From a virus, in the IMG/VR virus record IMGVR_UViG_3300027816_000069, positions 32,001 to 96,000 of that record: 64,000 bases of DNA; one strand, given 5' to 3'. Positions 2,422 to 16,505 of this stretch are shown piece after piece (the first letter of the stretch is position 1; the number at the start of each line of letters is the position of its first letter). Below the pieces are notes generated by a model. It saw only the letters and a program-made list of their open reading frames with translations, was not told the DNA's origin and did no database searches. The position numbers and the translations under genes were made by a program.

Positions 2422-4101
2422 CTATTTGGGGAAACTGTTACTATAAATTGATTGTTGAAATTGTGCATCTGTATTCTCAATAATATTAACTATAAAAATT
2501 TGTTTACTTTTGTTGATTTCTGGTTTAGGATAGCCATTGTTCTGTAAAACTATCGAATTGTCATTATTTTTTTCCACATTAATTTTATACTTAAATTGCA
2601 AAATAATATTATTGGTATCACCCAAAAATATAGATTTTGGAAAATCATTACTATATTCATACTGAGATAATGTAAATGCTCTATTATCATTATCTGTTTC
2701 AGTAGTTTCATTAGTCTCAGGATTAACCGTAAATGTTGTAAATGCTCTTTTGATACCTGTAACTTTTATGCTTGTTTTACAATTACCACCATCTAAAATA
2801 TCCGATGCTTTTTTTAAGGCTTTACCCTCGTTAGAATTTACGCCATAGAGCGACAGCATAAGCTCAATTTCTTTTTTTAAGTTATTTCCTCTGTTTAAAT
2901 AATGTATTCTGTCCTTAATGCATTTGTTAAAAGCTGCATTTAATGGTTTTTCATATAGGTTAACATTATCTAAATTTGGTATTGTGGTTGAGTCATAAGT
3001 GTATCTTTTTATGAGACCGTTGTTTAAGCCTGGAGATCCATCGTATGGTCCTAATATAACGGTTGTTGTATCAACTTGATTATTGTCTTCTCGATGATCA
3101 ATACTCCACACCGCATTAGCTGCTGATACAGAATGGCCCTCTATTCTTATTCTTTCCCACGCATTTGGAATATCTGATTGGGCAGTAACGTGCAAATATT
3201 GTTTATTATTAGGTCCCCACGGTCTTTTTTCACTACTAGCTATTCTTATTGGATCATCAGCATCTTCCATAAAATCAAATATATCTGAATATATAAAATC
3301 CCACTTAGTATAATAATTAGCGTCTCTATCATTTACTCTGACTCTATTATCTTCTAGTTTAGCAGTATTATTAGCATCAATACCATAGAGTCTATATTCT
3401 CGTGTGTTGGGTATGGGTTTGCTTTGTGCTTCTGGTAATTTGTTATTTAATTTTTGATCTTTTAATACTGATTTTGCTTTTATGGTAACAATATCATTAG
3501 ATGTTAATTTTTTAGGTTTTTTAACAAATAATATTTGACTAAATGGGGAGCCATCTGGTCTAATAAATGCTGGTACTTCAATAATAGCATTCTGACCACC
3601 ACAACTAATTGTTAATTCAATATTAGCAGTTACTGGATAGTATATTAAAAAGTCTTGTTGTAGATTGTTACTAAAATTGATATATACGTGTGGTTTCTTT
3701 GCGGGATTTACTTGATTGAAAAAATCTCTCTGAGGAACTGTTCCATTCGATTGTAAAGACCATCTTATATTATAATAAAATAAACTATTAGAATTATAGT
3801 ATGTATGCAGACCATTAATAGTATTTAGTCCTTTTAGACCTAAAGAATCTAAAGAATCGCCAGGAACTGCACCAGGCACATCCTTTAGAATAATATCAAA
3901 AAATTTGAAATTATCTTTATCGTTTTTATACAGATCAGACGTAAATTTATATTCTGATGTTGGTCCCAAATCATTTATGGAAAATCCTTTAAATCCTAAT
4001 CCATTTGATTCATATAGTGACGTGATATATGGTGAAAGATTAGCATATGGGGCTGATAAACTTAAGCCCGGAGTATTATTTAGTAGAATAATATCTGGCA
4101 T
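2422..4101 (-). CDS. hypothetical protein (possible structural)
   Basis: 559-aa Asn-rich ORF, co-oriented with 1661-2407. Confidence 0.7.
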   Translation of the reverse strand: MPDIILLNNTPGLSLSAPYANLSPYITSLYESNGLGFKGFSINDLGPTSEYKFTSDLYKNDKDNFKFFDIILKDVPGAVPGDSLDSLGLKGLNTINGLHTYYNSNSLFYYNIRWSLQSNGTVPQRDFFNQVNPAKKPHVYINFSNNLQQDFLIYYPVTANIELTISCGGQNAIIEVPAFIRPDGSPFSQILFVKKPKKLTSNDIVTIKAKSVLKDQKLNNKLPEAQSKPIPNTREYRLYGIDANNTAKLEDNRVRVNDRDANYYTKWDFIYSDIFDFMEDADDPIRIASSEKRPWGPNNKQYLHVTAQSDIPNAWERIRIEGHSVSAANAVWSIDHREDNNQVDTTTVILGPYDGSPGLNNGLIKRYTYDSTTIPNLDNVNLYEKPLNAAFNKCIKDRIHYLNRGNNLKKEIELMLSLYGVNSNEGKALKKASDILDGGNCKTSIKVTGIKRAFTTFTVNPETNETTETDNDNRAFTLSQYEYSNDFPKSIFLGDTNNIILQFKYKINVEKNNDNSIVLQNNGYPKPEINKSKQIFIVNIIENTDAQFQQSIYSNSFPK

Positions 4102-4270
4102 AATTATCTACCATATATGATATAAGATGGAGCGATAACTAGCTGTGGTTTATTGGGAACCAAAACTTTGGTAGTGGTGGCATTATTAATCTTAGTATTA
4201 TTTGATGTTTTAATTAGTTTGCTATTAAACATTATGATCATAAGAGCCTTTCAATAAAAGAATGTATCTG

Positions 4271-4280
4271 ATTATACACC
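4271..4280 (-). promoter_or_regulatory. GGTGTA-type putative late promoter
   Basis: GGTGTATAAT on the minus strand upstream of leftward genes; similar motifs at 44417(-), 52031(+), 62287(+). Confidence 0.4.
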
Positions 4281-4480
4281 ACAACTGGACGCTATGAAAC
4301 TCTGATTCTGTATAAAAATTATTTTGATAAAAAAAGAAAAGGATGGTGGATTGTGGCTGATAAACTGGCCAATTATTTGGTGAGGGTGCTTATTTTTTTT
4401 AGACCACCGCCACCTTTTTGGATATCCCCCTTCATTGTGGGGGAAATGAAAAAACCCCCCGTTGGTAGGGAAAGCATCTA

Positions 4481-4497
4481 TGCAAAATCTGTGCCAA
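4481..4497 (-). promoter_or_regulatory. sigma54 -24/-12-like box
   Basis: TTGGCACAGATTTTGCA, exact GG-N10-GC. Confidence 0.55.
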
Positions 4498-4540
4498 ATG
4501 CTCGAGAAAAATTCCAGAAAGATTCTCTGATTTTTTTTTC

Positions 4541-4599
4541 TTGCAATTGCCGATAACTAAGGTAGAATCAGGGAAACGAAAGGGAAAGAAAATGCAAAA
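4541..4599 (+). repeat. promoter-RBS-start direct repeat, copy 1
   Basis: TTGCAATTGCCGATAACTAAGGTAGAATCAGGGAAACGAAAGGGAAAGAAAATGCAAA, near-identical at 4922. Confidence 0.9.
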
Positions 4600-4846
4600 C
4601 TGGACTCCTATCAACAAACAACTTCCCCCCGTGGCAGAATGTCGCAAAGAATACTATGTTACTATTCTTAGCCATGAAGGGCGTCGATGCGTAAAGGAAG
4701 GTACATATTGTTATAAAAACTACAATCATCCTTCCGATAACTGGCAGTTTCATTCTTATGATGGAGAAGAATGCGATATAGAAGATTATGGTACAATCAT
4801 AGCATGGATGCCAGTACCAGAAACACCCGCACCATTTCAAGGCTAA
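4592..4846 (+). CDS. DUF551-like hypothetical protein
   Basis: W..I..QLP N-terminus and IIAWMPVPE.P C-terminus. Confidence 0.65.
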   Translation: MQNWTPINKQLPPVAECRKEYYVTILSHEGRRCVKEGTYCYKNYNHPSDNWQFHSYDGEECDIEDYGTIIAWMPVPETPAPFQG

Positions 4847-4854
4847 GTATTTGT

Positions 4855-4890
4855 TTGGCACAGTTTTTGCATATGCAACTATCATGCCAA
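4855..4890. promoter_or_regulatory. convergent pair of sigma54-like boxes
   Basis: TTGGCACAGTTTTTGCA (+) and TTGGCATGATAGTTGCA (-), both GG-N10-GC. Confidence 0.55.
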
Positions 4891-4921
4891 ACCAAAATAT
4901 TTTTCCTCTAATTTTTTCCGT

Positions 4922-4979
4922 TTGCAATTGTCGATAACTAAGGTAGAATCAGGGAAACGAAAGGGAAATAAAATGCAAA
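4922..4979 (+). repeat. promoter-RBS-start direct repeat, copy 2
   Basis: two mismatches versus the 4541 copy. Confidence 0.9.
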
Positions 4980-5203
4980 TGACAATCAAGCCGGTTAAGG
5001 GTATGTATTTCTCTGCTATTCGCAATCGTGACGATAAGGTTTTCGTCGGGACTATTGTCAACGTCAAGTCTATGGGCATGAAGGGTAAGATGATTACCGT
5101 TCTTACCGGCCATGCAAAGTATGCAAACGTCTATCTAGACGAGTGCTACGATTACGCTTGGAGCGACTTTCCCCTTCCTCCCCTCCCCGGCCGGGGGGAG
5201 TGA
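4973..5203 (+). CDS. hypothetical protein
   Basis: ORF starting inside the repeated promoter/RBS module. Confidence 0.7.
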   Translation: MQMTIKPVKGMYFSAIRNRDDKVFVGTIVNVKSMGMKGKMITVLTGHAKYANVYLDECYDYAWSDFPLPPLPGRGE

Positions 5204-5275
5204 ACGGGTATAGACGGGCCGTTATCGGGGTACTTTGAATCCTCCCCCATAGTGGGGGCTAACCTAGGAAAAATC

Positions 5276-5476
5276 ATGAGCGTATCAGAAATGATCGTGC
5301 GACTGCAATCGGAAGGTATGATCGTGTCGCGTATTCCGAATGATAGTCGGACATTACACGTTGACGGCTATCATCCCCCCCATGCGAAGGGGTTGCCCGA
5401 TTGGATTTATGGATGCCCCGGATGGGGGGTATCGTCCTGCGGATTCGCTCGCGTGTTTATATTCAAGGTGGGTTGA
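5276..5476 (+). CDS. hypothetical protein
   Basis: AGGA RBS plus ATG. Confidence 0.5.
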   Translation: MSVSEMIVRLQSEGMIVSRIPNDSRTLHVDGYHPPHAKGLPDWIYGCPGWGVSSCGFARVFIFKVG

Positions 5477-5541
5477 CCCCCTACTAGGGGGGTTGATTGT
5501 AGTCGGAACTTTGCTAGAATCTTTTGAACAGGAGAAACAAC

Positions 5542-5913
5542 ATGGCTAAGTATGCTATCATCGAAAACGCAAAGCGTACCGTTCGCATGGCCTTCAAGGG
5601 TATCGCTATCCCTCACCTTGTGAAGATTTCCGATAGTCAGGTGGTGGAGGGTGTCGAATATGTTTACGGCGTCAACGATCACGACCGCTATCTTGTGACC
5701 GAAAAGGTTATCAAGTTCAACCGCTCGGCTCTGCGGAATACCAGCAAAAGCAAGGCTGACAAGGTTAACCCCCGCGTGTTAGGGGATGACGACTCCATGA
5801 TCGTGAAGGTGGGCAAGCCGGGTAGTCGGGAGCGTGTAGAGGCTTTGGCATCCCAGTATGCTGCCGTCGAGGCGACCGGCGAGGAACTCTCCCCCTTTGG
5901 GTGGGATAAGTGA
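5542..5913 (+). CDS. hypothetical protein
   Basis: AGGAG RBS, 123 aa. Confidence 0.75.
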   Translation: MAKYAIIENAKRTVRMAFKGIAIPHLVKISDSQVVEGVEYVYGVNDHDRYLVTEKVIKFNRSALRNTSKSKADKVNPRVLGDDDSMIVKVGKPGSRERVEALASQYAAVEATGEELSPFGWDK

Positions 5914-5944
5914 ACACCGGTATACCCCCACTACGGTAGGGGAA

Positions 5945-5988
5945 CTGCCAAAATGGCAGGCCGGCCGGCCCATCTGCCAAAATGGCAG
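5945..5988. repeat. tandem dyad repeat, copy 1
   Basis: CTGCCAAAATGGCAG-gccggccggcccat-CTGCCAAAATGGCAG. Confidence 0.95.
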
Positions 5989-5991
5989 TCG

Positions 5992-6008
5992 AGCAAACCG
6001 TGTGCCAA
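5992..6008 (-). promoter_or_regulatory. sigma54-like box
   Basis: TTGGCACACGGTTTGCT, adjacent to dyad copy 1. Confidence 0.55.
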
Positions 6009-6040
6009 ATAAAAATATTTTTTCCGTTGATTTTTTTTGA

Positions 6041-6067
6041 TTGACAAGCCGATAATTCTGGTATAAT
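6041..6067 (+). promoter_or_regulatory. early promoter TTGACA..GCCGATAA..TATAAT
   Basis: ttgacaagccgataattctggtataat. Confidence 0.7.
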
Positions 6068-6092
6068 CAAGGCATCACAAGGGAGAAAAGTT

Positions 6093-6287
6093 ATGCTTCA
6101 CGATTTTGATGATGTGAATCGGATTCTGGCTGAGATGACGAGCGAGAACATGATCGAACCCATCGACGAGAGCGATTGTCACCCGATGGACTGGGCCGAA
6201 GTGACCGGGGTGCTGGACGATGTGCAGGATGAAATTTATCCCGAGCCCATGCTTGACGAAAACGGTGTTCTGTGGTATGTTAGTTGA
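6093..6287 (+). CDS. acidic hypothetical protein
   Basis: GGGAG RBS downstream of promoter. Confidence 0.7.
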   Translation: MLHDFDDVNRILAEMTSENMIEPIDESDCHPMDWAEVTGVLDDVQDEIYPEPMLDENGVLWYVS

Positions 6288-6300
6288 AAAGGAAAAAATA

Positions 6301-6552
6301 ATGAGCAAAGGTCATGATGAATTGGCCGAATATCTTTACAATAATAAAGAGGATACTGATATGTACTATCATGATGACACTACCGACCCTAACTATGATG
6401 ATCATGAGGATTTTTACAGTGATTCATTTGATGATGATATGGATGGCGATGTGGAAACTGGCCTCGCTTCCGCCGGATGGGGAACCGATGAGGACTACGG
6501 GTATTATGGTGATGATACCCCGATGAGCGACGATTACTATGGTGGAGAATAA
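6301..6552 (+). CDS. highly acidic hypothetical protein
   Basis: D/Y-rich with LASAGWGTDEDYG motif. Confidence 0.7.
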   Translation: MSKGHDELAEYLYNNKEDTDMYYHDDTTDPNYDDHEDFYSDSFDDDMDGDVETGLASAGWGTDEDYGYYGDDTPMSDDYYGGE

Positions 6553-6556
6553 TAAC

Positions 6557-6853
6557 ATGCCAAAGATTAGTGTTAAGGATTGGATTAAGTCTTATATGTC
6601 ACAACCAGAGGAAAAGAAAATGATGAACGTTATCGTAACTCACACGGATACTTTTGGTGGAGAGGCTAATTATGGATGGGTGAAGCGTCACGAGTTTACT
6701 ATTCACAAGCATGCGTCACAGCGTAATATTACTCGAAAGGTTAAGGCTTTGGCCGGAATGACCGGTGTTAAGAGTGATACGTTTGATTATGATGTTGGTC
6801 TTACTATTAAGCCTAGGGGTTATAATCAAGTTATTTTCGTAGATTTTGAATAG
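6557..6853 (+). CDS. hypothetical protein
   Basis: TDTFGGEANYGWV motif; start may be 6620. Confidence 0.7.
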   Translation: MPKISVKDWIKSYMSQPEEKKMMNVIVTHTDTFGGEANYGWVKRHEFTIHKHASQRNITRKVKALAGMTGVKSDTFDYDVGLTIKPRGYNQVIFVDFE

Positions 6854-6865
6854 GAGGAACCCGAT

Positions 6866-6909
6866 CTGCCAAAATGGCAGGCGGGCCGGCCGATCTGCCA
6901 AAATGACAC
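6866..6909. repeat. tandem dyad repeat, copy 2
   Basis: CTGCCAAAATGGCAG-14nt-CTGCCAAAATGACAC. Confidence 0.95.
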
Positions 6910-6980
6910 CCTAATTTTTTCTCTTGACTATTCAAGTTCGGCCTGTAGAATACCGATAACACTAGTAGGAGAAAAAGAAA

Positions 6981-7205
6981 ATGGTTGACGGATACCAGAA
7001 AATCTATAAGTTTGACAATGGTTTTGGGGCCAGTGTGGTTTCTCATAGTGGCTCATATGGAGGAAAAGAGGGTTTGTTTGAGATTGCTATTCTTGATAAG
7101 AATGATCAAATTAGTTATGATACCTTTATTACTGGTGATGTAATTGGATGGCTTGATTTTGCTGGCGTGGCCGATATTCTGGAAAGAATTAAGAATCTTG
7201 CTTGA
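6981..7205 (+). CDS. conserved phage hypothetical protein
   Basis: FDNGFGASVV..GLFEIAI..DVIGWL. Confidence 0.75.
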   Translation: MVDGYQKIYKFDNGFGASVVSHSGSYGGKEGLFEIAILDKNDQISYDTFITGDVIGWLDFAGVADILERIKNLA

Positions 7206-7257
7206 CAAGTGTCGATAAGTAGAGTAGACTTACACTATACCACTAAGGGAAAAGACA

Positions 7258-7575
7258 ATGAATCACGCCGAAGCAATTAAGATGGTTCGTGGCAAGAGGA
7301 ACGCTGATCGTCGCAAGGTTGGCAACAATACCTATGCTGAAATTCTGCCGAATGGTAGTGTGGGAATTATGCTTCACAGTACCTATGTTGTACAGATTCA
7401 TCCTGACAATACCTACACCCTCAATAGTGGGGGCTGGCAAACGCTAACCACTAAGGATAGAATTAACCAGTATAGCCCGCGTCGAGTGTACCAGCGGAAT
7501 TTTGAATGGTTCGTGAAGATTAACGATAAGGAATATCCTTTTATGGATGGGATGGTGGTGGGTTGTCCCACCTAA
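7258..7575 (+). CDS. conserved phage hypothetical protein
   Basis: LNSGGWQTLTTKDRIN motif; promoter at 7202. Confidence 0.75.
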   Translation: MNHAEAIKMVRGKRNADRRKVGNNTYAEILPNGSVGIMLHSTYVVQIHPDNTYTLNSGGWQTLTTKDRINQYSPRRVYQRNFEWFVKINDKEYPFMDGMVVGCPT

Positions 7576-7613
7576 CCCTTCGGGTTCGGCTGGGGTGGCT
7601 GTAGTCAGCCAAA
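7564..7613 (+). repeat. TGT...GTAGTCAGC motif, copy 1
   Basis: TGT-to-GTAG offset is 37 nt in all four copies. Confidence 0.7.
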
Positions 7614-7618
7614 AATAC

Positions 7619-7660
7619 TAAAGTTTGAAACGTTGACAAGCCGATAGATAAAGGTAGAAT
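7619..7660 (+). promoter_or_regulatory. overlapping sigma28-like and sigma70 promoter
   Basis: TAAAG..GCCGATAG overlapping TTGACA..TAGAAT. Confidence 0.65.
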
Positions 7661-7892
7661 GGTGCAGAAATGGAGGTTGTTATGGGTCATCTTGCTGGGC
7701 TTTTGATCTTGGTCATTTTTTGTGGGTTTATTGTGGGTATTATTGGGGTGGCTGCTGATCTTAATGATTGAATAAATAAAAGGAATTCAAGGATGAATTT
7801 TGACCCCTATAATTTTGTGTGTGGTTTTATTGTAGCCTTATTGTTGTGCTATAGTGTGGCCGATCTGGTTTTTTCCACTAAGGATAATAGTA

Positions 7893-8180
7893 ATGAAATT
7901 GACGACTAAGGAAATCGTTTTTCTTGCTTGCGTGTTTGTGGTTGGTTGTTTTTGTGCTTTTTATGCTAATACCAGCATTAAGCATGATACTCCCGCAGAG
8001 TTTTTGAACGAAAAGCCAATGGAGCCGCCGAAGGTAGAATTTGAACAGGAACCTAGTGGGGTTTCATATAATGATCCCGAATTGAAAATTGTTGAAGTTA
8101 TGTATACTAGTGAACAGGAAGGAATTCATACTGTTAAGGTGGCCTCATGCCGAGGATGTCACTGGAAATGCTGCCAATAA
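7893..8180 (+). CDS. hypothetical membrane-anchored protein
   Basis: N-terminal hydrophobic helix. Confidence 0.6.
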   Translation: MKLTTKEIVFLACVFVVGCFCAFYANTSIKHDTPAEFLNEKPMEPPKVEFEQEPSGVSYNDPELKIVEVMYTSEQEGIHTVKVASCRGCHWKCCQ

Positions 8181-8214
8181 GGCAGCTCGGCCGGCCAACA
8201 TGCCAAAATGGCAG
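8171..8214. repeat. tandem dyad repeat, copy 3
   Basis: CTGCCAATAAGGCAG-14nt-ATGCCAAAATGGCAG. Confidence 0.9.
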
Positions 8215-8290
8215 TCAAAAAAATTTTTAAGTATTGCTTGACAACTGCCGATATCTAGTGTAGAATCAGCAAACACGAAAGGAAAAGAAC

Positions 8291-8530
8291 ATGACCTACA
8301 ACGGCTTCAAGAATTACGAAACGTGGAATGTTGTGCTGTGGATCAATAACGATGAGGGTCTGTATAATCTGGCTCGCCAGTGCGTATCCTATGATGAGTT
8401 TGTGGATTGTATGAAAGATTTGGGTGGTGAGATTGGATATCAAACGCCCGATGGTGTGGCTTGGAATGATTCTGGCATCGACCGTGAAAGCGTGAATCGG
8501 GATTGGGTTCAGGATTTTGTTGAAGTGTAG
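8291..8530 (+). CDS. conserved phage hypothetical protein
   Basis: YNG.KNYETWNV.LWINNDEGLY..TPDGV. Confidence 0.75.
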   Translation: MTYNGFKNYETWNVVLWINNDEGLYNLARQCVSYDEFVDCMKDLGGEIGYQTPDGVAWNDSGIDRESVNRDWVQDFVEV

Positions 8531-8592
8531 GCTTGACTTTTGACGATCATGGGTTAGACTATGGAAAAGGTTTTTCAAAACGAAAGGGTTTC

Positions 8593-9003
8593 ATGATGAA
8601 TGAAGTGATTATTGGTGCTATTGCTGCTGTGGTATTGGTTGCTGGTCTTCTGTCGTTTGCTGGTTTTCATGTGTATGGTGGCGTTAAGGATAGTCTGACC
8701 AATGCACGGGTTGGTCGAGTATACAACTTTGAGTATATTCAGCCCGTGACGGGTGATCCTGAGCGATTTATGGCTAAGGTGCTGGATGTTCATGAGTTTT
8801 CCGCTGATTATCTGGCTAGACTGAATGCGGTGAGTAGGTATCGTAGGTATGATCCTAACTTTGAGCGTAGCCGCCATATGGTGACGGCCCAAACGCCAGA
8901 TGGTAAGATTAGGAACTTTTACGCTGAACGCACCCGCAATGTTCGTCGGCCACTCCTTGGTGGGGTAGCCTTCCGAACAGGGCTGGCTGAACTGCTGTCC
9001 TGA
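8593..9003 (+). CDS. hypothetical membrane-anchored protein
   Basis: N-terminal TM; promoter at 8533. Confidence 0.7.
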   Translation: MMNEVIIGAIAAVVLVAGLLSFAGFHVYGGVKDSLTNARVGRVYNFEYIQPVTGDPERFMAKVLDVHEFSADYLARLNAVSRYRRYDPNFERSRHMVTAQTPDGKIRNFYAERTRNVRRPLLGGVAFRTGLAELLS

Positions 9004-9020
9004 AAAGATGTTCCATCGCA

Positions 9021-9051
9021 AGCCCGTCCTAGGAAACCCCTAGGGCGGGCT
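9021..9051 (+). terminator. GC-rich hairpin after gene
   Basis: AGCCCGTCCTAGG-aaacc-CCTAGGGCGGGCT. Confidence 0.6.
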
Positions 9052-9061
9052 GATGGAGTTT

Positions 9062-9105
9062 CTGCCAAAACGGCAGGCGGGCCGGCCGATCTGCCATAAT
9101 GGCAG
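9062..9105. repeat. tandem dyad repeat, copy 4
   Basis: CTGCCAAAACGGCAG-14nt-CTGCCATAATGGCAG. Confidence 0.95.
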
Positions 9106-9234
9106 GAAATTTCTTGTGGATTTTGTCTCTTGACAAGCCGATACTAGAGTGTAGAATGATAGAGTCACCAACAAAAATCCGATTCATTCGGTGTTATACG
9201 CTTGACAAGTCGAGAACGTATGCTATATTGGTGA

Positions 9235-9827
9235 CACAAACTTTCGTGGGTCCATGCGGCGGGACTAGATTGGGATAACCTATTTCGATAAACTTTCTCT
9301 GAAAGACTGGGGGAGTTGCCAACGGGGTTATACGTTGGATAGAAGTACCAATCTATGGGGGATGGCGTCCTCACCACGACCAATACTTTATGGGTGACGG
9401 TTTTCCGTATGACGAGGCAAAGCACAGCGGAGCGAAGGGGAGTTACCGGTGACGAACCTTCCACGCGGCCTCCCAAACTGCGAAAGCAGGAGTAGAAATA
9501 GGTGACACCCATAAACAATATTATGGTTCCTAGATAATAGGTTAGGATTAAAAACGTTCGCCCTTCCCATCCTTTGTGATAGGCTAAAAACGTTGCCATA
9601 TACAATACAACCAGTAACCGTTTCTAAGAGCCAGACCAAATAGGGTTATATGCGCAATACCACCTTATTTGCAGGGAGGATTTCCGTGGACGGTTTTCAT
9701 AGAATCGGGGCGTAAAAGATTCGCTGGTTACAAATCTGCTGATAGTTTCCCTTAGATAAGGTAAAACCTTGAGGTTGAACGGATCAGTACCGAGAGGCTG
9801 TTCGTAAAACTATCGGCGGTCGGTACT
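9235..9827 (+). ncRNA. large structured ncRNA (~590 nt), family unassigned
   Basis: promoters at 9130 and 9202, no credible ORF, many long-range helices, GNRA hairpin, 3' pseudoknot. Confidence 0.75.
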
Positions 9828-9860
9828 TGACTTGATGATAAAGAATGGTAGAATAGTTTT

Positions 9861-10061
9861 ATGAAAATCATACCAAAACAAAACGCACGAAAGTGGACAA
9901 AAGAACGGCTGAAACGTCATCCGGGTCTTTGGAAGGTTGAGCAGGATGCTAAGAGTGTTCCTTGCTGGCCGGGCGAAGATGCTATTTTGATGAAAAATTT
10001 GACTGATGGTTGGAGTGGCTGGTTTCCGATAAAAGATATTGACATAGCCGGTCAGGAATGA
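9861..10061 (+). CDS. hypothetical protein
   Basis: ORF after promoter at 9827. Confidence 0.6.
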   Translation: MKIIPKQNARKWTKERLKRHPGLWKVEQDAKSVPCWPGEDAILMKNLTDGWSGWFPIKDIDIAGQE

Positions 10062-10277
10062 TAGAATACTGAAATGACACTGCAAGAGTTTCTGGATGAG
10101 TTTCTTGATCCAAAGTTTCAAGAGATGATGAAGATTGTGGAAAAAGTCTTAGAGAAAAAAAATGAGAGTATTTCGTAAAATAATTCTGTTTTTCCCATCT
10201 TTAACCATGTTCTTTTTGGCATACTTTACTTTTATTTGTGATAACGAGGCTACTAAATTTAGTTTTAGGTGGAAATA

Positions 10278-10505
10278 ATGACCGTTAATGAACTTATTGA
10301 GATGTTGAAGAATTATCCGGGCGATATGAGGGTATTGACTCTTGGGTATGAGGGTGGGTATAATGATATTAGATTGGACAATAATGATATTGTATTTGAT
10401 GTCCAACGCGGTGAAGGGGCTTGGTATTATGGGCCTCATGAGTGCGTGGAGTTTACAGATGAGAAAACTGGTACAAAGTGCTTAATTATTGCTAGGACGA
10501 AATGA
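10278..10505 (+). CDS. hypothetical protein
   Basis: MTVNELIEMLKNYPGDMRV..GYEGG, a common phage pattern. Confidence 0.7.
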   Translation: MTVNELIEMLKNYPGDMRVLTLGYEGGYNDIRLDNNDIVFDVQRGEGAWYYGPHECVEFTDEKTGTKCLIIARTK

Positions 10506-10565
10506 ACTGGCATTATGGACAACCTAATGTAATGAGATTGGTCTAAATCCTTATAAGAAATAACA

Positions 10566-10748
10566 ATGAAAACTGAAACTCTTGAACTGACTAAGACTGA
10601 ACTTGATTATCTTCTGAGTGTTGTTCATGAACATATTGACTCTGGTGTTTCATGGGGTAATTGGGGGGGTAGTCATGCTCAGTTTGTAAAGATGCAAAAT
10701 AGAGTTTTGGAAAAGATTGAGGAAGCCAAAACTGGTAGTGTGTCCTAA
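10566..10748 (+). CDS. hypothetical protein
   Basis: ORF in tiled run. Confidence 0.55.
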   Translation: MKTETLELTKTELDYLLSVVHEHIDSGVSWGNWGGSHAQFVKMQNRVLEKIEEAKTGSVS

Positions 10749-10793
10749 AAATGGTTCTATTATGCCAGAGTATTATCTGCAAAAGGAATAGGT

Positions 10794-11033
10794 ATGGAAT
10801 GGATTAGTTTTTTTGATCGTCAACCAGAAGACGGGCAAAAGATTTGGTATTATGGAAAATATATTGGTGTGTGGGTTGGTATATACCATTATTCTCCAAA
10901 TGATCCTGTAAGTCCTCATATTATTTTATGCGACGAGGCTCCCGGCGTTGTGGATCGTATGGATGCCCCGTATTGGCAACCTTACAGACCAGCAAAACCA
11001 GAGAAAGATTACCCAAAGGATTATCCATCATGA
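10794..11033 (+). CDS. DUF551-like hypothetical protein
   Basis: MEWIS..DRQPE..YWQPY. Confidence 0.6.
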   Translation: MEWISFFDRQPEDGQKIWYYGKYIGVWVGIYHYSPNDPVSPHIILCDEAPGVVDRMDAPYWQPYRPAKPEKDYPKDYPS

Positions 11034-11203
11034 TTGACAATAAAGATAAGGCGTTGATTTATGTGATTAACTTTTTTAACTCTCGTATGAGTGCCATGAA
11101 TAAGAATAATATAGAGAGAACTAAAGAATTAATCTCTACTCATAAAATTAGTGCTAGTGAACTTGTGGATAAGTATGTGAAATTAGTATATGAAAACTCT
11201 TAG
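11030..11203 (+). CDS. hypothetical protein
   Basis: ATGA overlap with upstream gene. Confidence 0.55.
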   Translation: MIDNKDKALIYVINFFNSRMSAMNKNNIERTKELISTHKISASELVDKYVKLVYENS

Positions 11204-11315
11204 TGATATTTGTCCATGTGGCGCTTGTGATGTGCTAGTATGGAAATATGATGATAATGGTTTAATCTGGTTATTTTGCCAGCAATGCCACTGGTGGTAT
11301 ATCGGAAACGATTAA

Positions 11316-11359
11316 CCGCCAAAATGGCAGGCTGGCCGGCCGATCTGCCAAAATGGCAT
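11316..11359. repeat. tandem dyad repeat, copy 5
   Basis: CCGCCAAAATGGCAG-14nt-CTGCCAAAATGGCAT. Confidence 0.9.
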
Positions 11360-11424
11360 TCTTTTTTTCTTAAGAATACTCTTGACAGACGCCGATCATA
11401 GGAGTATACTTAATACACAACCAT

Positions 11425-11507
11425 GCCGCTGTGGTGGAATTGGCATACACATGACACTTAAAATGTCACGCCTTATAGGCTTGCGAGTTCAAGTCTCGCC
11501 AGCGGTA
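11425..11507 (+). tRNA. tRNA-Leu(TAA)
   Basis: cloverleaf; anticodon arm TGACA-ctTAAaa-TGTCA; long variable arm. Confidence 0.92.
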
Positions 11508-11567
11508 TTCTTTTTAGTCCGAATTGTAAACGCTCTATATAGTAGACACCAAAGCGTTTGAAATATT

Positions 11568-11617
11568 TGTTTTTCCCAATCCTTCGGATTTGGCTGGTGT
11601 GGCTGTAGTCAGCGAAA
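11568..11617 (+). repeat. TGT...GTAGTCAGC motif, copy 2
   Basis: ccaatccttcggatttggctggtgtggctgtagtcagcg. Confidence 0.7.
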
Positions 11618-11690
11618 GTTTAAAGGTCTTGACAAGGTTTGGTCGATAAGGTATAATAGAAACAACAAGACGCATAACTAAAGCGAAATA

Positions 11691-11775
11691 CCCCGATGTT
11701 CCACACGACTGACTGTAAATCAGTTGACATATTATGTGTGGCGGCTGTCAAGTGGTTCAACTCCTCCATCGGGGA
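11691..11775 (+). tRNA. atypical D-armless tRNA-Tyr(GTA)-like RNA
   Basis: CCCCGAT/ATCGGGG acceptor, ACTGA-ctGTAaa-TCAGT, TTCAACT loop; own promoter at 11629. Confidence 0.6.
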
Positions 11776-11819
11776 TTAAAGGTCTTGACAAGCACTAGCC
11801 GATAAGATATACTACAAGC

Positions 11820-12233
11820 ATGAAACAGAAACCACTACATGCCGAAGTTCGATTCCATCTTGGTAAAGGTCAGTTTTTTAAGCATTGGCAAATCAAGATT
11901 GTACAAGGAAAAGAGAAGGTTGATGTTTACTATTGTGATCCTGCCTATTATCAATTAGAGATGATTGGGTGCAAATTAATCAATAAGGTTAATCAGGCTA
12001 AAAAGGTTCATGAGGCTGGCGTTAAGGATGTTACGGGGTGGGTTGAGTGTAGGGATGTTAGAATAAATAATGAAGTAGGGGTTGACAATCTTGAGAAATT
12101 ATACTACAATCCGTTGAGAGATCCGCACTGGCGTCGTGAAAGCGACAATAACGAGTTCATTTGGGATAATAGTGAATACGCTACTCTACTAACTAACGGC
12201 AAACAAGTTTATATTTTGGAAGAAAGGGTTTGA
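11820..12233 (+). CDS. hypothetical protein
   Basis: 137-aa ORF, apparently leaderless after promoter at 11785. Confidence 0.7.
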   Translation: MKQKPLHAEVRFHLGKGQFFKHWQIKIVQGKEKVDVYYCDPAYYQLEMIGCKLINKVNQAKKVHEAGVKDVTGWVECRDVRINNEVGVDNLEKLYYNPLRDPHWRRESDNNEFIWDNSEYATLLTNGKQVYILEERV

Positions 12234-12235
12234 AT

Positions 12236-12607
12236 ATGATCAAGTTGGAACTGACGGTTCGTGAGGCTATGAATCTGGCGACGAACTGCCACCTCGATAT
12301 CTATGAGCGGATTGTGGCCGCTTTTGAGGTTGCGTTGGGTGTGAACCAGCACAGGATGGTTACTATCACCGCTGGCATGACTCTTGATAACCGTGTTCCT
12401 TGTATCAAGGCTATCCGACTCCACGCCGGCTGGGGTTTTAAGGAGGCAAAGGAGTGGACGGATTTTCTGGTTGGCGGCTGGAAGTACGACAAGTGGCATC
12501 CTGCTTCTCCCAACGCCAAGCAGAGCATCACCCTCAAGACTCCGGAAGCGGCCGAGAATCTGCTGCGTGATCTGACCACTTTGGGTTGTGAGGGTTTTCT
12601 CTCATGA
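12236..12607 (+). CDS. ribosomal protein L7/L12 C-terminal-domain-like protein
   Basis: RVPCIKAIRLHAGWGFKEAKEW..EAAENLLRDLTTLG resembles KI.VIK.VR..TGLGLKEAK. Confidence 0.6.
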   Translation: MIKLELTVREAMNLATNCHLDIYERIVAAFEVALGVNQHRMVTITAGMTLDNRVPCIKAIRLHAGWGFKEAKEWTDFLVGGWKYDKWHPASPNAKQSITLKTPEAAENLLRDLTTLGCEGFLS

Positions 12608-12619
12608 TCCAAACCCTGT

Positions 12620-12663
12620 CTGCCAAAATGGCAGCGGGGCCGGGCGATCTGCCAAAATGACAG
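12620..12663. repeat. tandem dyad repeat, copy 6
   Basis: CTGCCAAAATGGCAG-14nt-CTGCCAAAATGACAG. Confidence 0.95.
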
Positions 12664-12846
12664 CATAAAAAATTCATGTATGATACTTGACAATGCCGAT
12701 GCTTAGTGTAGAATGATGTTATCACGAGACAAGACGCTGGTTGACTGCAACACAAAAAAGTTCAACCCAGCACTTGACAAGTGACGATAAGTGATGTATG
12801 ATTCGTTTATTGGTGGTTGATAACTCTTTTGGGAAAGGTTTTTACT

Positions 12847-13104
12847 ATGCGTACTTATGATTTTGCGGTTGCTGTTGCGTCGGACACTCTTGATACGGAA
12901 GTGGTTGAGGATACGATTCGTCAGGCTCTTGCCGATGGTCTGCCCGATGGTACTCTTGTGGTGGTCAAGGCCCAGGGTATCAAGGACTATAGCGAGCAGG
13001 GCTGGAAGGTTGCCCGTAATCGCAAGTTCGGTGTGAGTGTCAAGGAAGCCGGTGACGGTCACAAGGCTAAGACTACTAAGGTTGAGGCGGAGACTGTTGG
13101 CTGA
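12847..13104 (+). CDS. hypothetical protein
   Basis: promoter at 12774, AAAGG RBS. Confidence 0.7.
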   Translation: MRTYDFAVAVASDTLDTEVVEDTIRQALADGLPDGTLVVVKAQGIKDYSEQGWKVARNRKFGVSVKEAGDGHKAKTTKVEAETVG

Positions 13105-13170
13105 ACACGGTTCGGGAGTTATAATGTCCGATAGACCGCTGGTGGACGCACTGGCGGCTATCGGTATTTC

Positions 13171-13242
13171 GGCCCCATAGTTAAAAGGATATAACACGGG
13201 ATTTCTAATCCTGTATTAGAGGTTCGATTCCTCTTGGGGCTA
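13171..13242 (+). tRNA. tRNA-Arg(TCT)
   Basis: cloverleaf; CGGGA-ttTCTaa-TCCTG. Confidence 0.9.
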
Positions 13243-13246
13243 TTTA

Positions 13247-13320
13247 GGGAGCGTAGATCAATCGGTTAGATCGCCAGCCTGTCACGCTGGAGGTTGCGGG
13301 TTCGAGTCCCGTCGCTCTCG
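13247..13320 (+). tRNA. tRNA-Asp(GTC)
   Basis: cloverleaf; CCAGC-ctGTCac-GCTGG. Confidence 0.95.
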
Positions 13321-13323
13321 CTT

Positions 13324-13367
13324 CTGCCAAAATGGCAGGCTCCGCGGCCGAACTGCCAAAATGGCAG
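13324..13367. repeat. tandem dyad repeat, copy 7
   Basis: two perfect 15-mers with a 14-nt spacer. Confidence 0.95.
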
Positions 13368-13441
13368 TTAAAATTTTGTGGATTCTTTCTCTTGACAAGC
13401 CGATAACGTAGTGTAGAATCACTAGCACAAGGGAGATAACC

Positions 13442-14146
13442 ATGAAAACTGCTGATGGTAACGACAAGTTGGGTAAGGGTTGCATTGTGGTTTCGCGTCC
13501 TGTTGGCGACACTTGCCCGTCAACGTGCGACTTTCTCAATAATGGCTGCTATGCCGAAGCCACCGAGAATCAGTATAAGAACGCTCGCACCGCGGGCTTT
13601 GCTAATGTTATTACCGAAAAGCATAAGATTCGTGCTATGATTCTTGATGCTATCAAGCGTAATAAAAGCATCCGCTGGCATGAGCGTGGCGATTGGTTTC
13701 TCAACGGCGAACTTGATACCAACTATGTTGAGAATGTAACGTGGGCGTGTGAGAGTGTTCTGGCCGATGGTATTAGTCTGCCTAATATGTGGTTTTATAC
13801 TCATATCTACGATAGTCGGCTTGTTGTACTGGAAAAGTATATGGCCGTCTATGCTAGTATTCATAATGCAGAAGATAGGGCTGCTGCGGTGTCTGCCGGT
13901 TTTAAGTTGTTTGCGTGGTGCGATAGTGATACTAAGATTGCTCCCAAGCGTCCAAAGAGTAAGGCCAAGGCCGATGCGTGGCGTAAGGCTTTGCCTAAAC
14001 TGGTAATTATCGAAGATGTCAAGTATGTTGTTTGCCCCGAGATTCGTCGTGGTCGATCAGTTATTACTTGTACTGGTACTAAGGATAGTATTAGTTGTGA
14101 TATGTGCGTCAAGGGTTTGGCTAACGTACTATTTCCTGCCCACTAA
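13442..14146 (+). CDS. GP88-like (radical-SAM-related) phage protein
   Basis: TCP..C......CYA, IRWH..GD, C-terminal CP...CDMC. Confidence 0.6.
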   Translation: MKTADGNDKLGKGCIVVSRPVGDTCPSTCDFLNNGCYAEATENQYKNARTAGFANVITEKHKIRAMILDAIKRNKSIRWHERGDWFLNGELDTNYVENVTWACESVLADGISLPNMWFYTHIYDSRLVVLEKYMAVYASIHNAEDRAAAVSAGFKLFAWCDSDTKIAPKRPKSKAKADAWRKALPKLVIIEDVKYVVCPEIRRGRSVITCTGTKDSISCDMCVKGLANVLFPAH

Positions 14147-14158
14147 AAGGATATAACA

Positions 14159-14401
14159 ATGGCTAAGTATTATGTTAATAGTGGTACGCTTCAAGTGATT
14201 ATGGACCATAGTGATCCTCTTGAGGCTGGAGTGGCCGGATTCCTAATGACTAACAAGATGGATACAATAGATGAGTATTTTTATATTGATGAGCGTGGTT
14301 TTCGTGATTATGTCAGTGCTGATAATGGTACTAACGTAATTCCTACTTCTAGCATTATTCGTGCCGCCGAATCCGAATTGACGGATGACACTCTGCCATA
14401 A
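14159..14401 (+). CDS. hypothetical protein
   Basis: AAGGA RBS; stop lies within dyad copy 8. Confidence 0.7.
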   Translation: MAKYYVNSGTLQVIMDHSDPLEAGVAGFLMTNKMDTIDEYFYIDERGFRDYVSADNGTNVIPTSSIIRAAESELTDDTLP

Positions 14402-14436
14402 TGGCAGGGCGGCCGGGCGATCTGCCAAAACGGCAG
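14393..14436. repeat. tandem dyad repeat, copy 8
   Basis: CTGCCATAATGGCAG-14nt-CTGCCAAAACGGCAG. Confidence 0.95.
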
Positions 14437-14501
14437 TTAAGTTTCTGGTACGATTGGCCGATAATTCTTTCATGGACAAGGGTTTGACAAGGAGGGTTAA
14501 T

Positions 14502-14864
14502 ATGCTACAATGGATTGGCGTTGCGTTGACTGCTGCTGCTTTGGTGTATACGGGTGTTAAGGATTATCAAAAAGGGGATATAAAAATTCCTCCCCTAAAT
14601 AAAAATTTGACAACTCCTAAGTATCCTGTACAATATTGTTTAATGGCGTATGACCCTAACCTAGATAGGATTTTTTACCTTCACGAAAACGGACAATGGT
14701 ATGATCATCCCCCACAACAACGACGATATGCGGCCACGTCGCAAGTACAACAGTATCAAAATCAAAACCAAGCAGCGGTGGGAACTTCCTACGGGTCACA
14801 GGGAGGAGCGGTATACGGTTATGGACAATCGGCCCAAGCGTCAACGTACCCGCAGCGATATTGA
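14502..14864 (+). CDS. hypothetical membrane-anchored protein
   Basis: AGGAGG RBS, N-terminal TM, Q/Y-rich tail. Confidence 0.65.
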   Translation: MLQWIGVALTAAALVYTGVKDYQKGDIKIPPLNKNLTTPKYPVQYCLMAYDPNLDRIFYLHENGQWYDHPPQQRRYAATSQVQQYQNQNQAAVGTSYGSQGGAVYGYGQSAQASTYPQRY

Positions 14865-14895
14865 CAGGAAGTGGCGTAAGGAGTATGATATATAG
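14728..14895 (+). CDS. small basic protein (overlapping frame)
   Basis: MRPRRKY..DNRPKRQRTRSDIDRKW. Confidence 0.45.
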   Translation: MRPRRKYNSIKIKTKQRWELPTGHREERYTVMDNRPKRQRTRSDIDRKWRKEYDI

Positions 14896-14976
14896 GTTAT
14901 TCTTGGTTTGAGTCATGACAAATCGAGAAGATAGTTTATGAGGGTATTCTATCTTTAAATAAAAACTATCCTCTTT

Positions 14977-15049
14977 GCCGGTATAACTCAGTTAGCAGAG
15001 TGTCAAATTTGTAATTTGAATGTCGTGGGTGCAAATCCTACTACCGGCT
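14977..15049 (+). tRNA. tRNA-Thr(TGT)
   Basis: TCAAA-ttTGTaa-TTTGA. Confidence 0.9.
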
Positions 15050-15082
15050 CTAGGAATTGAAATAAAAAACGGTGAATAATGC

Positions 15083-15155
15083 TGCCCGGTAGCTTAACTG
15101 GTAAAGCTGTTGACTTTGGATCAACTGAGTCTAGGTTCGAATCCTAGCCGGGCAT
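15083..15155 (+). tRNA. tRNA-Gln(TTG)
   Basis: GTTGA-ctTTGga-TCAAC. Confidence 0.92.
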
Positions 15156-15164
15156 ATGATTTAT

Positions 15165-15236
15165 ACACGGGTAGCATAATGGTAATGCCCCAAACTGTTA
15201 ATTTGTCAGATGTAGGTTCGAATCCTACCCCGTGTG
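15165..15236 (+). tRNA. tRNA-Asn(GTT)
   Basis: CAAA-ctGTTaa-TTTG; acceptor ACACGGG/CCCGTGT. Confidence 0.85.
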
Positions 15237-15245
15237 CTTAGTTTG

Positions 15246-15316
15246 ATTGGCGTAGTTCAACGGTAGAACGACGGTCTCCAAAACCGTAGATGGGGGTTCG
15301 ATTCCCTCCGCCTTTG
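15246..15316 (+). tRNA. tRNA-Trp(CCA)
   Basis: ACGGT-ctCCAaa-ACCGT; two acceptor mismatches. Confidence 0.8.
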
Positions 15317-15318
15317 TT

Positions 15319-15405
15319 GGAATCTTGGCCGAGTGGTTTAAGGCAGCGGTTTACTAAGCCGCCGAGGGTTAAAATCCTCCACAGGTTCGAATCCTGTAGA
15401 TTCCG
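15319..15405 (+). tRNA. tRNA-Ser(ACT)
   Basis: GCGGT-ttACTaa-GCCGC, long variable arm, G73. Confidence 0.88.
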
Positions 15406-15407
15406 TT

Positions 15408-15487
15408 GGTGGATTTCCAGAGCGGCAAATGGGCCTGACTGTAGATCAGGTGCTTCGGCTTCGGGGGTTCGAGTCCCTCATCCACCA
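15408..15487 (+). tRNA. tRNA-Tyr(GTA)
   Basis: CCTGA-ctGTAga-TCAGG. Confidence 0.92.
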
Positions 15488-15537
15488 CTAAACTTTTACT
15501 TGACAACGGTCGATAACAAGGTATAATCCCACAACAC

Positions 15538-15613
15538 GGGGCGTAAGGTAAGCCGGTTGCATCCGTCACTCTTATAAGGTGATCTTAGGTACGTTCGACT
15601 CGTACACGCCCTA
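15538..15613 (+). tRNA. tRNA-Ile(TAT)
   Basis: TCACT-ctTATaa-GGTGA; atypical D arm; own promoter at 15500. Confidence 0.75.
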
Positions 15614-15652
15614 CTTATATGTTTCGGAGGCTGACGTTTGAGTTGCGAGTGT

Positions 15653-15725
15653 GGCCCTATCGTCTAACGGTTTAGGACTTCGGATTTTCGTTCCGAATAT
15701 CGGGGTTCGAATCCCCGTAGGGTCA
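15653..15725 (+). tRNA. tRNA-Glu(TTC)
   Basis: TCGGA-ttTTCgt-TCCGA. Confidence 0.9.
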
Positions 15726-15766
15726 CTTGACAAAACAATCTGGCGAGGTACAATAAGGCTAAATAC

Positions 15767-15839
15767 GGGTCATTAGCTCAATTGGCAGAGCAGCATCCTT
15801 TTAAGTTGTAGGTTGTAGGTTCGAGTCCTACATGACCCA
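15767..15839 (+). tRNA. tRNA-Lys(TTT)
   Basis: ctTTTaa loop; acceptor GGGTCAT/ATGACCC. Confidence 0.88.
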
Positions 15840-15887
15840 TTGACAGCGGACGGTGTTTGGTGTATAATGCGATTAAAGGAGAGTTTT

Positions 15888-16046
15888 ATGTTTCATGGCG
15901 AGTATGAGAATTATGAAGATATTGTAAAAGACTCAGACGAACTCTTTTCGTATGATGATGACCACAGTTATGAAACTAATCTCTACGATGAAAGAGAATG
16001 GGACAATTACTATCATATTTTGGCCGATGAAATAGTGGAAGAATAA
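15888..16046 (+). CDS. small acidic hypothetical protein
   Basis: AGGAG RBS; stop lies in the first attC-like R'' box. Confidence 0.6.
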   Translation: MFHGEYENYEDIVKDSDELFSYDDDHSYETNLYDEREWDNYYHILADEIVEE

Positions 16047-16459: not shown

Positions 16460-16505
16460 GAACGCCAGCGATCAGCGGCTCGTCCGCTGCGTCGCGTGGT
16501 TATGG
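16457..16505 (+). repeat. attC-like site 2
   Basis: TGAGAAC gcca GCGATCAGCGG ctcgt CCGCTG c GTCGC gtg GTTATGG. Confidence 0.85.

Follow-up and report, generated by a model that had tools for sequence, protein, structure and literature searches.

What is encoded by a stretch of some 590 nucleotides (nt) that lacks an evident gene and lies among the tRNA genes of a phage? The stretch, positions 9235-9827 on the + strand of a window of 64,000 nt (bases 32001-96000 of the 122,350-base IMG/VR virus record IMGVR_UViG_3300027816_000069, with an estimated completeness of 88%; "the window" denotes this whole length of DNA), had been taken in a preliminary description, made from the sequence alone, for one highly structured RNA with its own promoters. 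Comparison with relatives shows that the region is structured and non-coding, but is a row of four self-contained modules, D1, M1, D2 and E. As judged from sequence comparison, D1 (~150 nt) and D2 (~110-185 nt) form a nearly constant pair of a previously uncatalogued RNA family, and M1 and E are accessory modules that are combined differently in related phages. D1 and D2 are tRNA-shaped without being tRNAs, are probably tRNA-derived, and most likely descend from tRNA genes of the phage's tRNA cluster. We hold with high confidence that the array comprises four small, independently folding RNAs; for the statement as a whole, in which tRNA-derived RNAs are processed from the array and act as tRNA-mimic decoys, we consider the chances about even. 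The modules are as follows (loci of relatives are denoted by L numbers; R1 and R2 are covariance models of D1 and D2, respectively, built in this analysis).

9236..9384, + strand: D1, a four-way junction; sole copy in the window (R1, 158.9 bits, E = 1e-44)
9385..9519, + strand: M1, an optional insert of 135 nt between D1 and D2
9520..9601, + strand: linker, common in full only to L133 and in part to L011
9602..9729, + strand: D2; sole copy in the window (R2, 119.7 bits, E = 1.4e-31)
9730..9827, + strand: E, a three-way junction with a pseudoknot, ~98 nt

Conservation of the modules among relatives

The open reading frames (ORFs) flanking the region led to 49 and 12 viral loci, in which the region was compared using blastn, and a further 86 viral and 92 metagenome stretches came from motif scans. 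Conservation does not cover the region as a single block: positions 9236-9386 and 9603-9729 recur together, and the sequence between and downstream of them varies among relatives. Profile searches detected both D1 and D2 in 169 viral or metagenome loci, with D1 located upstream of D2 on the same strand in all 169. Among the 96 distinct complete D1+D2 versions (229-783 nt), the spacer between the two domains ranges from 0 to 507 nt and does not exceed 5 nt in 37; without an insert, the conserved core is 229-350 nt long. The copy in the window carries an insert of 217 nt (9385-9601). Most of the 96 versions lack M1, and many lack E.

The two domains also occur apart. Three loci contain D1 without D2, and several contain D2 without a detectable D1; in one of the latter (L146), D2 starts 3 nt past a TAGAAT hexamer. 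When the whole records behind four loci were searched for both domains, two complete genomes (138 kb and 200 kb, with terminal repeats) were found to carry D1, followed by other structured-looking modules, with D2 nowhere in the record. In loci where D1 had escaped the sequence profile, R1 recovers divergent copies upstream of D2. No covarying helix joining D1 to D2 was identified, the only candidates being G-U-rich and overlapping established helices. The D1-only genomes, the D2-only loci and the lack of a joining helix are thus indicative of two RNAs, or autonomous domains, that usually travel together, as rnaD and rnaC of phage T4 do. The single RNA of ~590 nt that had been predicted is not upheld, given that the modules occur in differing combinations and D1 can stand alone; nor is the size similar to that of ROOL and GOLLD, the modules in the window being 98-149 nt long and the array not forming one fold.

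A scan of 185,579 prokaryote genomes with an 18-base motif yielded at least 120 stretches; none among the matches listed fits the D1 or D2 profiles, and we therefore consider them chance matches. Two further elements were observed next to the conserved domains. In the complete 138-kb genome that lacks D2, an element of ~100 nt with an ATGAGG/CCTCAT closing stem follows D1 (L025:3760-3870) and may be another member of the module set. A further conserved module, starting with ACAAACAGGGGTCGG, is located 3' of D2 in L037, L064 and L101, and 3' of D1 in L048.

Covariation in D1 and D2

Covariation was counted on MAFFT alignments that were not fitted to any fold. The elements of D1 in the window are:

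9245-9249 / 9374-9378: P1, closing helix
9250-9253 / 9262-9265: P2, short hairpin
9266-9273 / 9348-9355: P3, long arm
9281-9286 / 9342-9347: P3b
9291-9295 / 9313-9317: P3c
9319-9324 / 9333-9338: P4, hairpin
9358-9363 / 9367-9372: P5, T-arm-like hairpin beside the 3' strand of P1
9275..9331, + strand: pseudoknot, bulge AUAACC (9275-9280) with GGUUAU (9326-9331) in the P4 hairpin loop

For the 46 pairs of D1, 94.0% of the cells across 50 distinct sequences are paired, compared to 86.3% in shuffles and 33-44% in controls with slid partners; 24 pairs show changes on both sides, and none of 500 shuffles scored as high on any measure. The long arm P3/P3b ends in a three-way junction, and the pseudoknot is paired in all 300 cells, with one pair split between C-G (27) and G-C (23) among the 50 sequences; by our reading of the alignment, divergent copies have AUAGUC/GACUAU or AUAGCC/GGCUAU instead. 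G-U pairs alternate with Watson-Crick pairs, for example, in columns 157/170 (GU 34, GC 9) and 161/166 (UG 29, UA 14). The frequent alternation of G-U pairs, as read on the + strand, with G-C or A-U implies an RNA encoded on the + strand.

The elements of D2 in the window are:

9609-9615 / 9723-9729: Q1, acceptor-like closing stem, 7 base pairs (bp)
9616-9622 / 9689-9695: Q2, 7 bp, enclosing the variable hairpin Q3
9628-9632 / 9678-9684: Q2b
9637-9642 / 9666-9671: Q3, hairpin
9702-9706 / 9718-9722: Q5, hairpin of 5 bp with the 11-nt loop GGGGCGUAAAA

Across 57 distinct D2 sequences, 34 pairs are 90.6% paired (83.1% in shuffles, 31-48% in slid controls), 18 of them with changes on both sides, and again none of 500 shuffles reached these values. 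The Q5 loop is identical in 49 of the 57 sequences. A variable arm, Q4, is missing in the copy in the window. Collection of homologues and a covariation analysis had been proposed as a check of the preliminary description, and both domains show strong covariation. A resemblance of the D2 loop to a ribosomal RNA motif was dropped; blastn of the D2 hairpin against Escherichia coli genomes gave no match, although such a search is uninformative at 36 bases.

Accessory modules and the fate of the predicted helices

M1 and E are represented by fewer sequences. Their elements are:

9387-9396 / 9506-9515: M1, closing stem
9397-9408: M1, inner hairpin
9414-9418 / 9468-9472: M1, inner hairpin
9478-9489: M1, inner hairpin with a GAAA loop
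9736-9748 / 9807-9819: E1
9749-9752 / 9772-9774: E2
9777-9782 / 9798-9803: E3
9786-9793 with 9820-9827: E pseudoknot, E3 loop with the 3' tail

M1 was found in five distinct loci besides truncated copies, and its consensus fold has five compensatory pairs among five sequences; in L025 it lies ~4 kb from D1. E is 98.0% paired across 10 distinct sequences (slid controls, 31-47%). In some phages, E directly follows D2 on the 3' side, whereas in others it lies apart, behind its own promoter block; thus, in L004 and L006, E is located ~220 nt beyond D2, behind a copy of the block of promoter P2 of the window (see below). A resemblance of the E loop to a ribosomal RNA motif was also discarded, the motif not being kept in L004 and L006.

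Seven helices had been proposed from the sequence of the window, of which the relatives retain the five local ones and not the two long-range ones. TAGATTGG (9266) with CCAATCTA (9348) is P3 of D1, with 97.9% of the cells paired and three pairs changed on both sides; TTTATGGGTG (9387) with CACCCATAAA (9506) is the closing stem of M1, with two compensatory pairs among five sequences; and the CTGC-GAAA-GCAG hairpin at 9478, within M1, is likewise supported by relatives, as is the closing stem of E, CTGCTGATAGTTT (9736) with AAACTATCGGCGG (9807). The crossing AGTACCGA (9786) with TCGGTACT (9820), i.e. the E pseudoknot, is 95.9% paired, with one compensatory change from A-U to G-C in two of the 10 sequences. 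Of the long-range helices, ACCTATTTC (9278) with GAAATAGGT (9495) would engage a 5' strand already committed to two strongly covarying elements, the D1 pseudoknot and P3b, and a 3' strand that sits in M1, a module missing from most homologues and, in L025, removed by ~4 kb from D1. In the other, GTCCATG (9250) with CGTGGAC (9685), GTCC pairs locally with GGAC in P2 of D1 and, within D2, CCGTT is the partner of GACGG from the 3' strand (Q2, 99.5% paired).

Promoter-like sites and the boundaries of the array

The sites flanking the array, all on the + strand, are:

9090..9106, + strand: terminator-like hairpin, 7-bp stem with four G-C pairs followed by the T-rich tail AAATTTCTTG (a consensus match only)
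9130..9157, + strand: promoter-like site P1, TTGACA-16-TAGAAT, 11 of 12 consensus positions
9202..9229, + strand: promoter-like site P2, TTGACA-16-TATATT, with an upstream TG, 11 of 12 consensus positions
9827..9854, + strand: next promoter-like site, TTGACT-16-TAGAAT, 10 of 12 positions, leading ORF 9861-10061

The tandem promoters predicted at 9130 and 9202 are thus both present as consensus matches. The terminator-like hairpin would close the upstream ORF 8533-9003, so that a separate transcription unit would start downstream, and the site at 9827 marks the 3' limit of the array. The block that is conserved across relatives begins at 9236, 7 nt past the -10 hexamer of P2, and the P2 match predicts a transcript start near this position. 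In the part scanned (8500-10600), there are eight promoter-like sites, compared to 3.9 +/- 1.9 in shuffles, i.e. one every few hundred bases.

The arrangement recurs among relatives. Upstream of D1 lies a TTGACA/TAGAAT promoter, another module or a tRNA, the promoter of the 9130 type (TTGACA/TAGAAT) being directly upstream in many; D2 is followed by a T-run and the next promoter in 23 of 57 versions, and otherwise by E, another module or a gene. Relatives of ORF 9861-10061 are located directly 3' of the array in 12 loci. Short ACAA-type leaders (ACAAAC, ACAAC, ACAAAT, CACAAC) were observed at module starts, in the window at 9236-9241, 9606-9610 and 9730-9735, and are shared by promoter-led tRNAs (11411-11423, 15525-15537). 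Such words recur at the junctions of module swaps between phages and may be recombination or processing points.

Searches for coding capacity and known families

The preliminary description saw no ORF led by a ribosome-binding site in the region, and no ORF is conserved: a stop-free frame covering at least 80% of the length, in any frame, exists in only 8 of 53 distinct homologues, with differing strand and frame, and the ORFs overlapping 9235-9827 match no Pfam or PHROG family. The protein-coding reading was accordingly rejected. A search with the covariance models of Rfam 15 (4227 models), which had been named as a further check, gave no match in 9235-9827 at gathering scores and, at E<=10, a single chance match (fluoride riboswitch, 11.4 bits compared to a gathering score of 34). 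The models of RNase P and of group I/II introns likewise gave no match, in agreement with the preliminary description, and three related loci showed no match on D1 or D2 at E<=1. Positions 9100-9900 had no blastn match among 50,697 GenBank phage records, and no description of these RNAs was found in a full-text literature search. The IMG/VR catalogue, according to the relevant passage of PMC10690425, lists 8,495 candidate structured RNAs, which may include pieces of the array under anonymous numbers. The "new class" that had been suggested therefore stands in the sense of new RNA families without an Rfam match, and falls in the sense of a new giant RNA.

Likeness to tRNA and association with tRNA genes

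In the four-way junctions of both D1 and D2, a closing stem of 5-7 bp stacks on a hairpin of 5-6 bp, which is the geometry of an acceptor stem and T arm. In D2, Q1 (7 bp) is directly adjoined on its 3' side by Q5 (5 bp), giving a 7+5 stack with a loop of 11 nt; the stack of the common D1 type is 5-6 bp + 6 bp. Two subtypes of D1 (e.g. L114, L062 and L102) have a 5-bp stem with a 7-nt loop that differs from the T-loop consensus by one base, directly followed by the 7-nt 3' strand of the closing stem. Where a tRNA has its anticodon arm, D1 and D2 have an enlarged arm, which in D1 forms a three-way junction locked by the pseudoknot.

The locus lies in the tRNA region of the phage, with 12 tRNA genes in the window, in line with the tRNA association suggested at the outset. 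Among 53 representative loci, 33 have a tRNA in the fetched flank, in every case on the same strand, and in L147 a tRNA-Gly ends 5 nt before D1. Unusual tRNAs with 2- or 4-base "anticodons" were called by ARAGORN ~90 nt past D2 in L037:6992-7069, L064:6894-6968 (- strand) and L101:6648-6725 (- strand), and such calls recur in two more loci; in L037, L064 and L101, the genes called come after the conserved module that starts with ACAAACAGGGGTCGG. In L003:6406-6556 and L019:5199-5410, our reading of the alignment is that the D1-D2 spacer appears to end in a T-arm-like hairpin and an acceptor-like strand, which in L019 is followed by CCA; ARAGORN does not call the element of either locus a tRNA.

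Comparison with known RNAs

The closest parallel in layout is found in phage T4, whose record shows tRNA-Arg followed by a tandem of rnaD (species 2, 119 nt) and rnaC (species 1, 139 nt). In both cases, a phage tRNA cluster ends with two neighbouring non-coding RNAs of 120-150 nt, and D1 of L147 starts 5 nt after a tRNA-Gly, as the T4 RNAs directly follow a tRNA. By our reading of the T4 sequences, the 3' end of rnaC consists of a canonical T arm followed by an acceptor-like strand, and that of rnaD is CCA. A passage of PMC9697503 refers to the Northern-validated RNAC and RNAD as "RNAs of yet unknown functions" and classes them as late RNAs, whereas the promoters here resemble host sigma-70 early promoters. 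D1 further differs in its expanded, pseudoknotted arm, and R1 and R2, run with filters off on the T4 tRNA region, gave nothing above the low-scoring background, at best 6.8 and 8.0 bits, away from rnaC and rnaD. The resemblance to the T4 RNAs concerns layout and kind and does not extend to family.

ROOL and GOLLD, roughly 580-800 nt in size, are located near tRNA genes, and GOLLD was first seen in lake metagenomes. They share with the present RNAs the tRNA neighbourhood, a matter of context that defines no structure, and the character of phage-associated, structured non-coding RNAs; however, the units described here, at 100-185 nt each, are several times smaller, and the Rfam models of ROOL and GOLLD did not match the region at E<=10. 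In common with tmRNA, a long helix with a pseudoknot takes the place of the anticodon arm, and the four-way junction has its closing stem on a 5-bp hairpin. Unlike tRNA, D1 and D2 have neither an anticodon loop nor a D loop with the usual GG, and unlike tmRNA, they have no tag reading frame.

Y RNAs offer a further comparison, in that tRNA-like non-coding RNAs occur here in a genome that also encodes an RtcB ligase. YrlA, a tRNA-mimicking partner of Ro/Rsr whose ends form the Ro-binding stem, is often located near rtcB; here, RtcB is 22.5 kb from the locus, and the topology differs from that of YrlA. The Rfam Y RNA models had no match, and a search of the 122,350-base record, with an estimated completeness of 88%, detected no Ro/TROVE protein (PF05731), control genomes giving the expected matches; because the record holds no Ro protein, we do not suggest a Y RNA.

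The phage and its genomic surroundings

Sequencing-run and GenBank comparisons show that the source is an uncultured phage that recurs in freshwater: DNA of the window is present in 20 freshwater or lake sequencing runs from nine studies. No GenBank phage match to its DNA ligase exceeds 31% identity and, by this measure, the phage appears unrelated to any cultured phage. The window encodes 12 tRNA genes and one tmRNA; a CCA-adding enzyme was searched for in the phage record and none was found. Other genes of relevance are:

32270-33637: RtcB-type RNA ligase (113 bits)
35084-36109: second RNA ligase, with an OB-fold domain
48666-49023: full tmRNA (97 bits), the only one in the window

Together, RtcB, the RNA ligase, the tmRNA and the 12 tRNAs make up a sizeable toolkit for RNA repair and translation. 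Positions 4100-17500 of the window are an early region dense in short ORFs on the + strand, many of them without a family match; this is the type of region in which accessory genes and RNAs are exchanged.

Proposed processing and function

It is established that the sequence is conserved, that helices covary on the + strand, that the promoters match the consensus and that no conserved ORF is present. Building on these, we propose that 9236-9827 would be one early transcription unit driven by sigma-70-type promoters, from which host tRNA-processing enzymes would cut separate stable RNAs, with RNase P cleaving at the base of each acceptor-like stem. The products would function in trans by mimicking tRNA and so occupying a host protein that reads tRNA shape, the candidate targets being a tRNA-targeting defence nuclease or a factor of tRNA maturation or translation. 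Decoy or titration is favoured here because the modules are swapped among close relatives in the manner of accessory counter-defence genes, because they sit with the phage's own tRNAs, and because the phage also possesses RtcB, an RNA ligase and a tmRNA. The decoy function is nevertheless put forward tentatively and, taken by itself, is rather doubtful.

Several observations weigh against the proposal of tRNA-derived decoys. The common D1 type, including the copy in the window, has a hairpin loop of 3 nt, which is not a T loop, and lacks a conserved CCA; an additional base followed by CCA is present past the closing stem in only a few D1 copies. Since CCA is not conserved in the family, it carries no weight in the argument; nor is it encoded by the 12 true tRNA genes of the window. 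ARAGORN and Rfam RF00005 found the true tRNAs, but neither these nor the tmRNA models recognised D1 or D2, even at E<=1. No anticodon loop is kept, which makes a decoy for anticodon nucleases unlikely. None of the 20 runs that contain the stretch is recorded as RNA. The minimum free energy of the whole region (-175.3 kcal/mol, z = -0.59) was equalled or bettered by 25 of 100 shuffles, so that energy by itself cannot tell the region from chance. Finally, as described above, no covarying helix ties D1 to D2.

Alternative explanations

Three alternatives appear improbable, to a similar extent. In the first, D2 (or D1) would form homo-oligomers through self-complementary loops, as a scaffold or container of the ROOL/GOLLD/OLE type made of RNA only. 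The phage and tRNA neighbourhood is the same as for ROOL and GOLLD. According to PMC12286853, these two RNAs form homo-oligomeric complexes. The apex of Q3 carries perfect palindromes of 6-10 nt with seven differing sequences (UGCUAGCA, UGCGCA, GUCAUGAC, UGAUCA, GGUACC, UUCCGGAA and UCCUAGGA; UGCGCA, 9652-9657, in the window), and two variants shift the palindrome only to the G-U-compatible GGUGCC and UGAUUA. However, counted by lineage, the excess is not significant, whether at the loop apex (4 of 12 lineages compared to 2.4 expected, P = 0.20) or anywhere, for palindromes of at least 8 nt (4 of 12 compared to 2.1, P = 0.13) or at least 6 nt (8 of 12 compared to 6.3, P = 0.25). Moreover, six lineages have no palindrome, single-base variants break it, and the RNAs are several times smaller than ROOL and GOLLD, neither model of which matches. 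The palindromes as kissing sites, suggestive as they are, were therefore set aside on the lineage-wise shuffle test.

Under the second alternative, to which we likewise assign a low probability, the modules would be new self-cleaving or otherwise catalytic RNAs that process polycistronic transcripts of tRNAs and other RNAs. Strong conservation of junction and loop nucleotides, such as the D2 loop identical in 49 of 57 sequences, and the D1 pseudoknot would fit a catalytic RNA, and a related contig contains a pistol ribozyme (L068:5102-5164, 51 bits compared to a gathering score of 34.5), which lies ~3.4 kb downstream of the D1-D2 pair of that contig. However, no known ribozyme model matches the modules, no conserved candidate cleavage site was identified, and D1 and D2 are larger than known small self-cleaving RNAs.

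The third, with equally poor prospects in our estimation, sees the modules as cis-acting punctuation only, i.e. as signals for processing by RNase P/Z or for stability, like the t-elements of plant mitochondria, with no function in trans. The acceptor/T-like stacks are compatible with this, as is the position of the array, whose neighbours are tRNAs and short early genes with individual promoters. However, many versions are a self-contained unit of promoter, D1, D2 and T-run without an attached mRNA, and the invariant loops and pseudoknotted arm exceed the needs of a processing signal.

A single, ornate RNA of ~590 nt, with D1, M1, D2 and E as domains joined by long-range helices, is very unlikely and, as far as sequence comparison goes, already largely refuted. 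It is true that no terminator-like site separates the four modules, which all lie between the promoter pair and the promoter that follows, and exact complementary 9-mers and 7-mers link distant parts of the copy in the window. Yet, both long-range helices employ strands that are already engaged in covarying local helices, M1 is missing in most versions and E in many, D1 and D2 are spaced by 0-507 nt, and D1 stands alone in two complete genomes, with no covarying helix between the domains.

The least probable explanation, to which we give hardly any credence, is a protein gene on either strand or a DNA-level element (origin, packaging site or recombination hot spot): an ORF of 146 amino acids with a TTG start (9165-9605, - strand) overlaps the region, and the modules are shuffled among phages with recurrent ACAA-type junction sequences, but this ORF is not conserved, any long open frame being present in just 8 of 53 versions and differing in strand and frame, and it matches no protein family, which refutes the coding part, and the compensatory changes and G-U pairs specific to the + strand are indicative of selection on RNA, alongside which a DNA-level role could exist.

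Implications

Structured RNAs beside phage tRNA genes are a standing puzzle. The T4 RNAs rnaC and rnaD have been known for decades, and structures of ROOL and GOLLD are now available; we know of no assigned role for any of the four. To these, the locus described here contributes two new and well-supported RNA families, both with dense covariation and over 50 distinct aligned sequences, D1 also having a pseudoknot, and at least two accessory modules (M1 and E) besides. These families belong to the type of "phage tRNA-cluster stable RNA". The differing combinations of modules in close relatives, with D1 able to stand alone, resemble accessory anti-defence genes. Because the RNAs are short and the promoters look like those of E. 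coli, work on their biochemistry and structure is feasible even though phage and host are uncultured.

A broader reading, speculative and on present evidence unlikely, is that of a shuffling "RNA island" of tRNA-derived, pseudoknotted decoys, made up of D1, D2, E, M1 and further modules, each of which would neutralise or redirect a different host reader of tRNA shape. If this reading is true, RNA mimicry of tRNA would be a modular strategy of phages for counter-defence or host takeover, and the RNA island would offer a model for rnaC and rnaD of T4.

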